Part shown: positions 59,875-64,000 of the stretch, one piece after another
How the letters are laid out: every line of letters begins with the position of its first letter
Numbering within the stretch: position 1 is the stretch's first letter
Source: Escherichia coli
Lineage (GTDB): Bacteria; Pseudomonadota; Gammaproteobacteria; Enterobacterales; Enterobacteriaceae
Direction: 5' to 3' (one strand)
NCBI RefSeq assembly: GCF_044324785.1
Contig: NZ_CP172127.1
DNA length: 64,000 nucleotides
Program-made: the position numbers and the translations under genes
Notes under the pieces: model-generated
Databases searched by the model: none
What the model saw: only the letters and a program-made list of their open reading frames with translations
What the model was told of the DNA's origin: nothing

Positions 59875-62472
59875 TTACACCGCAGTCTGGAAAATCACCC
59901 CATCGGCTTTTTCGGTGTACTGAGAAAGCTGGTTGAAGTTCAGATAACGATAAGTATCAACGGCAGTTTTATCTACTTGCGCAACGTAGGTCTGGTACTC
60001 TTCCGGCGTCGGTAGTTTGCCAATCAGCGCCGCAACAGCAGCCAGTTCCGCAGAAGCCAGGAAGACATTCGCGCCAGTACCCAGACGGTTCGGGAAGTTA
60101 CGGGTAGAGGTGGAAACCACCGTCGCACTGTCTGCTACACGCGCCTGGTTACCCATACACAGGGAACAGCCAGGGATCTCGATACGCGCACCACTCTTAC
60201 CGAAGACGCTGTAGTAGCCTTCTTCGGTCAACTGCGCGGCGTCCATACGGGTTGGCGGTGCCACCCACAGGCGGGTCGGCAACTGACCTTTGTGCGCATC
60301 CAGCAGTTTACCAGCGGCACGGAAGTGACCGATGTTAGTCATGCAAGAACCGATAAACACTTCGTCGATCTTCTCGCCCTGTACCGCAGACAGCGGACGA
60401 GCGTCGTCCGGGTCGTTCGGTGCACAGAGGATTGGCTCTTTAATATCCGCCAGATCGATGTCAATCACTGCCGCGTATTCCGCATCTGCATCGGCTTCCA
60501 GCAGCTCAGGATTCGCCAGCCATTTTTCCATGCCCTGAATACGGCGTTCCAGGGTACGACGATCGCCGTAACCTTCCGCGATCATCCACTTCAGCAGGAC
60601 GATGTTGGAGTTCAGGTATTCAATGATCGGTTCTTTGTTCAGCTTGATGGTACAACCGGCAGCAGAACGCTCGGCAGACGCATCGGTCAGCTCAAATGCC
60701 TGCTCAACTTTCAGATCCGGCAGACCTTCAATTTCCAGAATGCGGCCAGAGAAGATGTTTTTCTTACCTTTCTTCTCAACGGTCAGCAGACCTTGTTTGA
60801 TCGCATACAGCGGAATGGCGTGTACCAGATCGCGCAGGGTGATGCCCGGCTGCATTTTGCCTTTGAAGCGCACCAGAACGGATTCCGGCATATCCAGCGG
60901 CATTACGCCTGTTGCGGCTGCAAATGCCACCAGACCAGAACCCGCCGGGAAAGAGATACCGATCGGGAAACGGGTATGGGAGTCACCACCGGTACCGACG
61001 GTATCCGGCAGCAGCATACGGTTCAGCCAGGAGTGGATTACGCCGTCACCCGGACGCAGCGACACACCGCCACGGTTCATAATGAAGTCCGGCAGCGTGT
61101 GGTGTGTGTTTACGTCAACTGGCTTCGGATACGCCGCGGTGTGGCAGAAAGACTGCATCACCAGGTCAGCCGAGAAGCCCAGGCACGCCAGGTCTTTCAG
61201 TTCATCACGGGTCATCGGGCCAGTGGTGTCCTGAGAACCAACAGAAGTCATTTTCGGTTCGCAGTACGCGCCCGGACGAATGCCTTTCACACCGCAGGCA
61301 CGACCTACCATTTTCTGCGCCAGCGAGAAGCCGCGATCGCTCTCAGCGACATCTTTCGCCTGACGGAACACATCGCTGTGCGGCAGGCCAAGTGCTTCAC
61401 GCGCTTTGGTGGTCAGGCCACGCCCGATAATCAGCGGAATACGGCCGCCAGCACGCACTTCATCAATCAGCACGTCGGTTTTCAGTTCGAAGGTCGCCAG
61501 CAGTTCGCCGGTTTCGTGGTTACGCACTTCACCTTTGTACGGGTAAACGTCAATTACGTCGCCCATGTTCAGGTTAGAGACGTCCACTTCAATTGGCAGT
61601 GCACCCGCATCTTCCATCGTGTTAAAGAAGATGGGTGCAATTTTACCGCCGAGGCACAAACCACCGCCGCGTTTGTTCGGCACATGTGGAATATCATCAC
61701 CCATAAACCACAGTACGGAGTTCGTGGCGGATTTACGCGAAGACCCCGTACCCACAACGTCACCGACGTACGCCAGCGGGAAACCTTTCTGTTGCAGAGC
61801 TTCGATTTGCTTGATCGGACCAACAACGCCTGGCTGGTCTGGCTCAATACCTTCACGGGCGTTTTTCAGCATCGCCAGCGCGTGCAGTGGGATATCCGGG
61901 CGAGACCACGCATCCGGTGCCGGAGAAAGGTCATCGGTGTTGGTTTCGCCTGTGACTTTGAAGACGGTAACGGTCAGTTTTTCAGCCAGCGCCGGGCGAT
62001 TCAGGAACCATTCGGCATCCGCCCAGGACTGCATTACCTGCTTCGCATATTCGTTGCCTGCTTTGGCTTTCTCTTCTACGTCATAGAAGTTATCGAACAT
62101 CAGCAGCGTGTGAGAAAGTGCTTTGGCAGCAATCGGTGCCAGTTTGGCATCATCCAGCGCGTCGATCAGCGGATGAATGTTGTAACCACCCTGCATGGTA
62201 CCCAGCAGTTCGATGGCTTTTTCCGGAGTCAGCAGAGGGGATTTGGCTTCGCCTTTAGCGATAGCAGCCAGGAAGCCTGCTTTGACATAGGCGGCTTCAT
62301 CGACGCCAGGGGGAACACGGTTGGTTAATAGATCTAACAGGAATTCTTCTTCGCCCGCGGGCGGGTTTTTCAGCAGCTCTACAAGTGCGGCCATTTGGTT
62401 TGCATCCAGGGGTTTGGGCGCAATCCCCTCAGCGGCACGCTCAGCTACGTGCTTACGGTATTCTTCTAGCAC
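59875..62472 (-). CDS. acnB: aconitate hydratase B (bifunctional aconitase / 2-methylisocitrate dehydratase)
   Basis: ORF track 916 aa; K-12 length of 865 aa corresponds to the GTG at 62470-62472 ([30 protein letters not shown]...) with GAGGAG upstream. Confidence 0.96.
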
Positions 62473-62826
62473 GACGGTTCTCCTCGCTCTCATTGTCATA
62501 GTGCGGCAGGCGATTCTCTTCACGCTCCTGTGAGACAGCAGTTTGTAGGGTAAATGCCCAGTACCGCAACGGGCAGAATAGCAGGATTTTGACGATGTGT
62601 TAATCCGTTTACAAAAAAGCAACATAAAAAAGTGGCTGAATCGTTAAGGATGGTCTAGAGATTGTTTCCCTCCGTAAAAACTTCGTTAATTCGCATGGTG
62701 ATAATCACCTTTCTCAACGAATCCCAAGATTAGTCAAAATTTAAACTACCGCCTCTTTATACTCGGATTCTCAGCACCTGCGGGTGGCAGTTCGCCGACC
62801 ATTGCGATTTCCTTGAGATCCGAATT

Positions 62827-64000
62827 ATGAAAATGACTTTGCCGTTTAAACCCCATGTGCTGGCGCTAATTTGCAGTGCCGGGCTTTGTGCCGCCTCTGC
62901 CGGGCTATATATAAAAAGCCGCACAGTGGAAGCGCCTGTGGAAGCGCAATCGACACAACTGACTGTGTCTGACGCTGCCGCGGTTACGCTTCCTGCAACG
63001 GTTTCCGCGCCTCCCGTAACACCCGCCGTCGTCAAATCCGCATTCAGCACTGCGCAAATAGATCAATGGGTTGCACCTGTCGCGCTGTACCCCGACTCTC
63101 TGCTTTCACAAGTGTTAATGGCATCAACCTATCCGACAAACGTTGCGCAAGCAGTGCAATGGTCGCACGATAATCCACTTAAACAAGGCGATGCTGCTAT
63201 TCAGGCGGTATCTGACCAGCCGTGGGATGCAAGCGTCAAATCACTGGTGGCCTTTCCACAGTTGATGGCGTTGATGGGCGAAAACCCGCAATGGGTGCAA
63301 AACCTGGGCGATGCTTTTCTGGCGCAGCCGCAGGACGTGATGGACTCGGTACAGCGATTGCGGCAACTGGCGCAACAAACCGGCTCGCTGAAGTCATCAA
63401 CCGAACAGAAAGTTATTACCACAACGAAGAAAGCTATACCGGTAAAACAGACAGTCACGGCTCCCGTCATACCATCCAATACCGTTTCAACTGCCAACCC
63501 TGTCATTACAGAGCCTGCAACAACCGTCATTTCCATTGAGCCCGCCAATCCTGATGTGGTCTATATTCCCAACTACAACCCAACCGTGGTTTACGGGAAC
63601 TGGGCCAATACTGCGTATCCGCCGGTTTATCTGCCACCACCAGCCGGAGAACCGTTTGTTGACAGCTTTGTGCGCGGATTCGGCTATAGCATGGGCGTTG
63701 CTACCACGTACGCACTATTTAGCAGCATCGACTGGGACGATGACGATCATGACCATCATCATCATGACGATGATGATTATCATCACCACGATGGCGGTCA
63801 TCGTGACGGTAATGGCTGGCAACACAACGGCGACAACATCAATATCGACGTCAACAATTTCAACCGTATCACCGGTGAGCATCTTACTGATAAGAATATG
63901 GCATGGCGGCACAATCCAAACTACCGTAATGGTGTGCCCTATCATGATCAGGATATGGCAAAGCGGTTTCACCAAACCGATGTTAACGGCGGCATGAGCG
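62827..64000 (+). CDS. yacH: DUF3300 family protein YacH, N-terminal part (3' end outside the window)
   Basis: Own translation from ATG 62827: MKMTLPFKPHVLALICSAGLCAASAGLYIKSRTVEAPVEAQS...SIDWDDDDHDHHHHDDDDYHHHDGGHRDGNGWQHNG...; open to the window end, so absent from the complete-ORF track; signal peptide; divergent from acnB as in K-12. Confidence 0.8.
   Translation, partial: MKMTLPFKPHVLALICSAGLCAASAGLYIKSRTVEAPVEAQSTQLTVSDAAAVTLPATVSAPPVTPAVVKSAFSTAQIDQWVAPVALYPDSLLSQVLMASTYPTNVAQAVQWSHDNPLKQGDAAIQAVSDQPWDASVKSLVAFPQLMALMGENPQWVQNLGDAFLAQPQDVMDSVQRLRQLAQQTGSLKSSTEQKVITTTKKAIPVKQTVTAPVIPSNTVSTANPVITEPATTVISIEPANPDVVYIPNYNPTVVYGNWANTAYPPVYLPPPAGEPFVDSFVRGFGYSMGVATTYALFSSIDWDDDDHDHHHHDDDDYHHHDGGHRDGNGWQHNGDNINIDVNNFNRITGEHLTDKNMAWRHNPNYRNGVPYHDQDMAKRFHQTDVNGGMS

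Follow-up and report, generated by a model that had tools for sequence, protein, structure and literature searches.

The closest described systems, to which the loop analysed here can be likened by analogy and not by homology, are periplasmic zinc proteins that carry His-rich loops. ZnuA has a flexible His-rich loop, disordered in crystals, which is needed for two extra, low-affinity zinc sites and whose role, as chaperone or sensor, is still debated (PMC8900738). In PA4063 of Pseudomonas aeruginosa, two His-rich loops, disordered in the apo form, supply His and Asp ligands to zinc sites that are exposed and of micromolar affinity (PMC8561739). PA4063 was formerly an uncharacterised periplasmic protein whose His-rich stretches were the sole clue in its sequence, and YacH of Escherichia coli resembles it in this respect. 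In E. coli itself, H/D-rich low-complexity segments that bind Ni, Co or Zn are found in the loop of RcnA, the C-terminal tail of SlyD and HypB; these lie in the cytoplasm or on its side of the membrane, and the metal pathways they serve are defined, whereas YacH comes without such a pathway context. Another low-complexity, metal-ligand-rich segment of a periplasmic protein, the Met/His-rich insert of CueO, is encoded at 55779-55943 on the minus strand of the window, i.e., the whole stretch of E. coli DNA analysed, 64,000 nucleotides in length. The CueO insert binds copper; it differs from the YacH tract in being rich in Met instead of Asp and in adjoining a defined catalytic copper site.

The 5′ two-thirds of yacH occupy the final 1.2 kb of the window, on the plus strand (62827-64000, partial). 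The ATG is at 62827, and translation of 62827-63999 (+) gives an open frame of 391 codons, starting with MKMTLPFKPHVLALICSAGLCAASAGLYIKSR, that runs off the window end; full-length alleles elsewhere have about 617 residues, and residue numbering is identical in the K-12 allele. The order acnB / yacH / lpdA is found in 5,425 of 5,426 complete E. coli genomes, with the product given as “DUF3300 domain-containing protein”; acnB lies on the minus strand, divergent from yacH, and lpdA is the convergent neighbour on the 3′ side, and neither gives a hint of function. The DUF3300 (PF11737) domain extends over residues 75-333 (63049-63825, +; hmmscan E=1.5e-78). Its match scores 263.8 bits (cut-off 25), covers model positions 2-227 of 227 in the K-12 allele and spans both sides of the tract, so that, judged by the profile, YacH is a bona fide member of the family. 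A search of Pfam returned DUF3300 alone, and one of NCBIfam gave no match. The first-pass annotation had named the gene yacH, coding for a DUF3300 protein of unknown function, and both the genome annotation and the Pfam match agree with it. The reading frame is correct as well, because the same frame that gives the DUF3300 match also contains conserved family motifs further along, NINIDVNNFN and WRHNP..R.GVPY, on the 3′ side of the tract; the remaining frames over the tract are I/M/T-rich shadow ORFs. With the domain and conserved motifs in frame on either side, a frame artefact as the origin of the tract is ruled out.

The tract, DDDDHDHHHHDDDDYHHHDGGHRDGNGWQHNG, comprises residues 304-335 (63736-63831, +) and constitutes a lineage-specific insertion in a DUF3300 loop, in the context ...SSIDW-DDDDHDHHHHDDDDYHHHDGGHRDGNGWQHNG-DNINIDVNNFNR... 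The initial placement at 63736-63810 has the right start, D304 being at 63736, and an end that must be moved: the 32-residue peptide quoted with it ends at 63831, and position 63810 closes the first 25 codons. Of the 32 residues of the tract, 10 are His and 11 are Asp, in a window whose long ORFs average 2.7% His and 5.1% Asp. Against this background, the probability of at least 10 His in 32 residues is 8e-9, and that of at least 18 His/Asp in the 19-residue core of the tract is 2e-19; among the 73 long ORF segments of the window, no other 32-residue stretch ranks higher for His. The composition is therefore far above chance. At the DNA level, an imperfect 24-nt (8-codon) tandem duplication, coding for DDHDHHHH and then DDDDYHHH, is found at 63740-63785 (+) by Tandem Repeats Finder, with a period of 24, 1.9 copies and 86% matches. 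It includes, at 63748-63765 (+), a CATGAC unit followed by (CAT)4, where the +6 nt and the -3/+3/+6 nt alleles described below occur. The (CAT)4 run, at 63754-63765, is the longest perfect run in the tract.

YacH has an N-terminal signal-like segment (residues 1-29; 62827-62913, +), in which K2 and K8 precede the hydrophobic stretch HVLALICSAGLCAASAGLYI. The hydrophobic part extends over residues 10-29, there is a candidate signal-peptidase site after A-S-A25, and the 19-residue Kyte-Doolittle mean reaches 2.04, this being the sole strongly hydrophobic segment of the protein. When 105 full-length members representing the family were compared, 101 had a hydrophobic N-terminal segment ahead of the domain, and in 12 of these a lipobox-like motif was present. 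Secretion, as first proposed, is thus plausible, the segment being compatible with either cleavage or membrane anchoring, and such a putative export signal makes a periplasmic, extracytoplasmic location of the DUF3300 domain most likely. The C-terminal half, which lies beyond the window, is strongly basic and made of R/Q-rich repeats. A Pfam scan of K-12 residues 392-617 at E<=10 returned just two matches that miss their cut-offs, RskA_N (E=0.053) and DUF3106 (E=0.72); an identity of this Q/R-rich half (“PLTQQQ”) with the CpxP/Spy/ZraP group (LTXXQ / Metal_resist) is unsupported by the scan.

No solved structural relative of DUF3300 was found, and an AlphaFold2 (AF2) model of YacH was calculated from a 144-sequence alignment (mean pLDDT 80.7, pTM 0.76). 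In the predicted fold, residues 75-184 form a helical bundle, accompanied by a small part of mixed beta/alpha structure. Confidence is high (pLDDT >90) at residues 70-200, 230-270 and 335-385, and it stays at 83-97 in the blocks on the two sides of the tract (281-300 and 341-380). In the tract itself, at residues 311-330, it falls to 46-52. The C-terminal boundary of the insertion is formed by NINIDVNNFN (63835-63864, +), as defined by the family alignments; in the model, it contains a strand (338-341) and a helix (342-349), with pLDDT >90. A low-confidence segment between such well-modelled elements is what a disordered loop, and not a buried element, would give, and the tract is accordingly predicted by the model to be flexible, disordered and exposed.

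DUF3300 is very large; at E<=1e-3, the window protein has matches in 9,687 clusters at 50% identity. To place the insertion, 130 representatives of such clusters were aligned, apart from the 144-sequence alignment. In both alignments, the family consensus at the tract site is short, about five residues (...G(F/W)G.G(V/I)....LWGG.(N/D)W-G-x-x-D-(V/I)NINVNRYNN). E. coli YacH has about 25 additional residues at this point, between the nearly invariant W303 and NINIDVNNFN. Among the 130 representatives, H/D inserts are confined to the closest relatives. Distant members of the family (P0270, P0231, P0264) have unrelated inserts at the same site, rich in Y/G/K or in N, which indicates that this loop is a permissive insertion point. 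In the canonical non-enteric proteins, the domain, the putative N-terminal export signal and the flanking motifs are the same as in YacH; they differ from it in having about five residues at the site and a DUF2950 gene next to them (directly downstream in the three non-enteric loci examined, 3/3), whereas the E. coli locus (acnB / yacH / lpdA) contains no DUF2950 neighbour and YacH ends in a long Q/R-rich repeat tail. YacH is therefore atypical of DUF3300 in three features: it has the H/D loop, its C-terminal region is made of Q/R-rich repeats, and a DUF2950 partner gene is missing.

The distribution of the loop was followed in a scan with one genome per species, which yielded 37 loci, mostly from Enterobacteriaceae; the exceptions were two fragments, a single distant relative and two records whose organism labels are implausible. 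Among the genera represented are Escherichia, Citrobacter, Salmonella, Atlantibacter, Kluyvera, Raoultella, Buttiauxella, Franconibacter, Yokenella and Dryocola. Wherever the site was readable, more than 30 species of Enterobacteriaceae showed a D/H/Y/G-rich loop of 16-33 residues, longest in Escherichia, and the cluster members from Scandinavium and Rahnella also have the insert. The order of the elements is kept across genera (an Asp run, a His run, Asp, Tyr/His and a Gly-rich end), with identities of the domain down to 57-69%. Length, exact sequence and His count (1-11) differ from species to species; the poorest loops are those of Buttiauxella agrestis, with a single His, and of Yokenella, Enterobacter sp. 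ENT03 and Buttiauxella sp. A111, with three each. In Salmonella arizonae, where the tract starts at residue 280, the same D/H pattern is written in different synonymous codons. This suggests that more than a DNA repeat has persisted, and argues for a constraint on the loop at the amino-acid level.

The first-pass annotation had also anticipated that slippage would make the tract length vary between strains, and a comparison of alleles bears this out. About 18% of the sampled complete E. coli genomes deviate from the reference length, by -39, -3, +6, +21 or +24 nt, the events lying at the GAY/CAY repeats; the tract is thus far from invariant. Sixty evenly spaced genomes were taken from the 5,413 that matched a 161-nt query centred on the tract. 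The reference length was found in 49/60, +6 nt in 6/60, the -39 nt type in 3/60, and +24 nt and -3 nt in 1/60 each. The strain with the -3 nt allele (L009) is divergent, its tract flanks being 80-92% identical to those of RefSeq E. coli. In a second sample (361-nt query, 60 rows) the picture was the same, with further alleles at +21 nt, with a frameshift of -1 nt and with a disruption by an inversion. The -1 nt frameshift (L007) begins inside the tract, and the allele is annotated as a pseudogene. Out-of-frame alleles amounted to 0/60 and 2/60 in the two samples, and some of them may be sequencing errors. The inversion, of 164 bp, was found in one ETEC genome with a breakpoint in the tract, and could be an assembly artefact. 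Records covering less than 80% of the 161-nt query (218/5,413) bound the -39 nt and disrupted classes at about 4%, a figure that for the -39 nt type rests on these low-coverage records and the 3/60 rows; identity bands misjudge this allele, as its partial alignments score a high identity and split pieces are joined.

The DNA of the alleles reveals how each of them came about. Those at +6 nt are duplications of CATGAC, which add His-Asp; they are seen in O25b:H4/ST131-type strains, and 543 genomes are at least 99% identical to the +6 allele. The -3/+3/+6 nt alleles correspond to CAT units lost or gained, with copy numbers of 3-6, and the +21 and +24 nt alleles to extra duplications in register with the internal 8-codon repeat. 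The -39 nt allele is a deletion between TCATC microhomologies that removes HDDDDYHHHDGGH; these 13 codons make up most of the tract, and the allele is annotated as intact. The natural allelic series spans from 17 to 40 residues (-13 to +8 codons). Among 120 protein clusters, 22 distinct tract sequences occur, with His runs of 3-6, Asp runs of 3-4 and D/N, G/D, H/R and G/S substitutions. An alignment of 86 full-length alleles identified the tract as the chief indel hotspot within residues 1-391; a second hotspot of the protein is found at the C-terminal 96-nt repeats.

In Salmonella, the tract has been a site of gene inactivation. An 8-bp deletion at codon 284 of S. Typhimurium yacH, within “gacgatcatcac” (Asp-Asp-His-His), frameshifts and truncates the protein (PMC10048834). 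In a comparative study, UK-1 differs from LT2 by an 8-bp deletion in yacH, at this same coordinate, that shifts the frame, and yacH is counted as a pseudogene in UK-1, 14028s, D23580 and SL1344 (PMC3391293). Given that the S. arizonae tract begins at residue 280, the deletion at codon 284 lies within the tract.

Taken together, these data describe what is very probably a disordered, exposed, lineage-specific H/D loop in a probably exported DUF3300 protein, that gains and loses codons through its repeats. It very probably entered in the Enterobacterales lineage as an insertion at the permissive DUF3300 loop, between the conserved W303 and NINIDVNNFN. Because it consists of repeated GAY/CAY codons, with a duplication of 8 codons inside it, it is prone to replication slippage and to deletion or duplication between short direct repeats; the resulting length alleles of E. 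coli are for the most part in frame, and a frameshift pseudogene arises now and then. The loop is then most likely retained for a property that depends on its composition, since composition is kept while length, sequence and codons change, and since the E. coli variants are overwhelmingly in frame. Tentatively, and by analogy, the most probable property of this kind is the binding of divalent metals: a weak, multivalent and reversible binding of transition metals (Zn2+, Ni2+, Cu2+) in the envelope, by which the loop might buffer metals locally or serve the DUF3300 domain as a capture arm. We regard this as the best explanation overall, with a probability of about 0.45.

Metal binding is suggested by the composition and by the analogy with ZnuA and PA4063. 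ZnuA, of the cluster A-I solute-binding proteins, has a disordered loop rich in His/Asp/Glu, of about 20 residues, within a folded periplasmic domain, and with composition conserved more than sequence, and the predicted loop of YacH would be comparable in these respects. The segment between W303 and N337 of YacH corresponds to the His/Asp/Glu-rich inserts of about 15-30 residues of the ZnuA/PA4063/ZrgA type, and resembles them in disorder by AF2 prediction (at residues 311-330). The likeness stops short of homology with any known zinc-trafficking protein, and of a shared fold: YacH differs from ZnuA in having no solute-binding-protein fold or homology, no adjacent transporter genes and no Zur-box-like site upstream. 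Its tract has more Asp than the ZnuA loop, plus Tyr and Gly. A scan of the acnB-yacH intergenic region for the Zur-box core TGTTATANTATAACA gave no match with three or fewer mismatches, and YacH shows no homology to a metal protein, its match to Pfam ZrgA, at E=1.3, being compositional and falling far under the cut-off. A literature search found no paper on the YacH tract and no published metal binding for the protein; DUF3300 was named in just three of the searchable papers, and other mentions of yacH shed no light on its function. We have counted against metal binding this lack of metal-protein homology and of a Zur-box-like site, the uninformative neighbours, the His-poor orthologues, the natural deletion and the loss of the gene in S. 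Typhimurium. Any function of the loop is dispensable, as indicated by the His-poor orthologues, the 13-codon deletion in about 4% of E. coli and the S. Typhimurium pseudogenes.

Several of these observations would suit a neutral low-complexity expansion, in which a slippage-prone GAY/CAY repeat grows in a tolerant surface loop that accepts hydrophilic filler of any kind and the H/D content reflects the repeat unit and not selection. The wide variation in length and sequence, both between and within species, is what such filler would produce; the 13-codon deletion allele is common and annotated as intact, unrelated Y/G/K-rich or N-rich inserts occupy the same site in distant family members, and several S. 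Typhimurium strains have lost yacH by frameshift. The second hotspot at the 96-nt C-terminal repeats also suggests that the gene is generally tolerant of repeats. However, neutrality does not readily explain why the succession of D-run, H-run, D-run, Y-H and G-rich end has been kept across genera at domain identities of 57-69% and in different synonymous codons, nor why the length variants of E. coli are nearly all in frame. Moreover, His is a rare and costly residue, seldom kept in neutral filler. We therefore consider neutral expansion a serious competitor that is nonetheless rather unlikely.

A loop with about 11 Asp and 10 His could instead respond to pH or charge. Its net charge would be strongly negative at neutral pH, and zero or positive below about pH 6. 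As the pH of the periplasm tracks that outside, the loop might change its conformation or its partners when the cell meets acid, or it might work as an acidic patch attracting cationic antimicrobial peptides. Its predicted disorder and its confinement to enteric bacteria would fit such a role, as would the response of the gene to cationic peptides: yacH has been reported to be CpxR-regulated, its deletion leads to better survival in protamine, and its transcription falls upon exposure to protamine or cecropin (PMC9600279). The link to envelope stress was also counted in favour of the metal-binding explanation. The protamine phenotype, however, belongs to a deletion of the gene as a whole, and the strongly basic C-terminal half makes arguments from the net charge of the whole protein ambiguous. 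A pH- or charge-responsive loop is thus improbable as the main explanation, and it is compatible with metal binding. Regarding the regulatory sequences, no CpxR site (GTAAA-N5-GTAAA) was found upstream of yacH at one mismatch or fewer; CpxR-like matches across the window are at chance level, and a promoter scan upstream of yacH gave a consensus match solely on the minus strand, on the acnB side.

That the repeats switch yacH on and off by frequent frameshifting, as in a contingency (phase-variation) locus, would agree with the L007 frameshift that starts inside the tract, with the 8-bp S. Typhimurium deletion within it and with two frameshifted database “proteins” (P0122, P0124), but is very improbable because variant units of 3, 6, 21, 24 and 39 nt leave the frame intact and no perfect run exceeds (CAT)4, known phase-variable tracts being far longer; out-of-frame E. 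coli alleles are, in addition, rare, and the Salmonella deletion looks like a fixed lineage marker and not a reversible switch.

His-rich loops that are polymorphic and disordered are familiar, and this one will not surprise a specialist unless it gives DUF3300 a function. YacH is a protein of the E. coli “y-ome”, DUF3300 is a large family without a known function, and nothing in the enteric protein apart from the His/Asp loop points to a testable biochemical property. The natural allelic series, from 17 to 40 residues, and the natural knock-outs could be used directly in assays with metals, acid and cationic peptides. In genomic surveys, the tract and the 96-nt repeats make yacH prone to indels and frameshifts, which inflates pseudogene calls and splits protein clusters, and the instability of these repeats, and not function, can underlie signals in genome-wide association studies (GWAS). 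More speculatively, and with a low probability, the loop might be a periplasmic metal- or pH-sensing arm, acquired by enteric bacteria, that tunes the activity of DUF3300 within the Cpx envelope-stress response, with the allelic lengths, such as the two extra codons of ST131, setting metal or pH thresholds that differ between E. coli lineages. If this were true, the loop would open the family, with its roughly 9,700 clusters at 50% identity, to experiment for the first time.

Besides the His/Asp tract, yacH has a second indel hotspot, the larger of the two, at its C-terminal repeats past the window end. In the K-12 gene (locus L001), 96-nt tandem repeats at L001:4628-4848, each coding for a 32-residue Q/R-rich unit (SASPEQRQAVREKMQTNPQNQQRREAARERIQ), are present in 2.3 copies with 92% identity, and the C-terminal half of K-12 YacH is made up of these units. 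Changes in the repeat copy number account for the many allele lengths of YacH, from 546 to 662 aa, and for the splitting of the E. coli protein into many singleton clusters at 90%. A third, small site lies in the linker following the signal-like segment, at residues 35-41 (EAPVEAQ; 62929-62949), and is repeat-mediated as well: strain N3 (L002), which carries the nearest yacH allele among complete genomes, reads EAPVEAPVEAQ through a 12-nt tandem duplication.

The His/Asp tract is also the point at which two database proteins, P0122 and P0124, are frameshifted into the I/M/T-rich alternative frame (…TIMTIIIMTMMIIITTMAVIVTVMAG…). Such products among database proteins indicate that slippage or sequencing errors in the tract seed spurious protein clusters. 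The yacH allele of strain 23CRST011 (L007) is likewise frameshifted in the tract. A different kind of allele was found in E. coli L3_E36_ETEC, whose yacH (L006:2228-3985) is annotated as “frameshifted” and contains a 164-bp inversion of nucleotides 965-1128, one breakpoint being directly preceded by the CACCACGAT of the His/Asp tract. The inversion could be genuine, having occurred at short ATCATGAT-type palindromes, or it could be an assembly artefact.

Compared with complete E. coli genomes, the 1.4-kb region 62600-64000 gave a best match of 98.7%, with most matches at 94-97%. The top protein match to the window YacH, at 99%, belongs to “Escherichia sp. E1V33”, and the DNA identity of its yacH locus to the window is only 97.0% over 4 kb. 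It seems that either yacH varies more than core genes usually do, or few complete genomes represent the lineage of the window. Enterobacterales-type YacH was also found under the labels Chryseobacterium sp. 18061 and Campylobacter jejuni, in records which are probably mislabelled or contaminated assemblies, and a “Bordetella parapertussis” MAG holds a more remote relative (40% identity); the entries concerned are L040, L043 and cluster member P0280.

Second in the window for His-richness, after the His/Asp tract, is a 52-residue Met/His-rich low-complexity insert (55779-55943, minus strand) of a neighbouring multicopper-oxidase-like ORF (55455-57044, minus strand), which has a Tat-type start, MQRRDFLK, and which we take to be CueO. 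Inserts of this type are known copper-binding segments.

Regulation of yacH by CpxR has been published (PMC9600279). The acnB-yacH intergenic region (62471-62826) contains no clean GTAAA-N5-GTAAA site; by eye, the only CpxR-like candidate there is a degenerate GTAAAAACTTCGTTAA at about 62677-62692. The sole match of a consensus promoter scan of the same region is on the acnB side.

Unlike E. coli yacH, which stands without such a partner, the DUF3300 gene in all three non-enteric loci examined (L047:5001-7405, L048:3816-6336 and L049:5001-7202) has a same-strand DUF2950 gene directly 3′ of it, with a DUF3299 gene ahead of the DUF3300 gene in L047. These three loci suggest that DUF3300 and DUF2950 form a conserved two-gene module.
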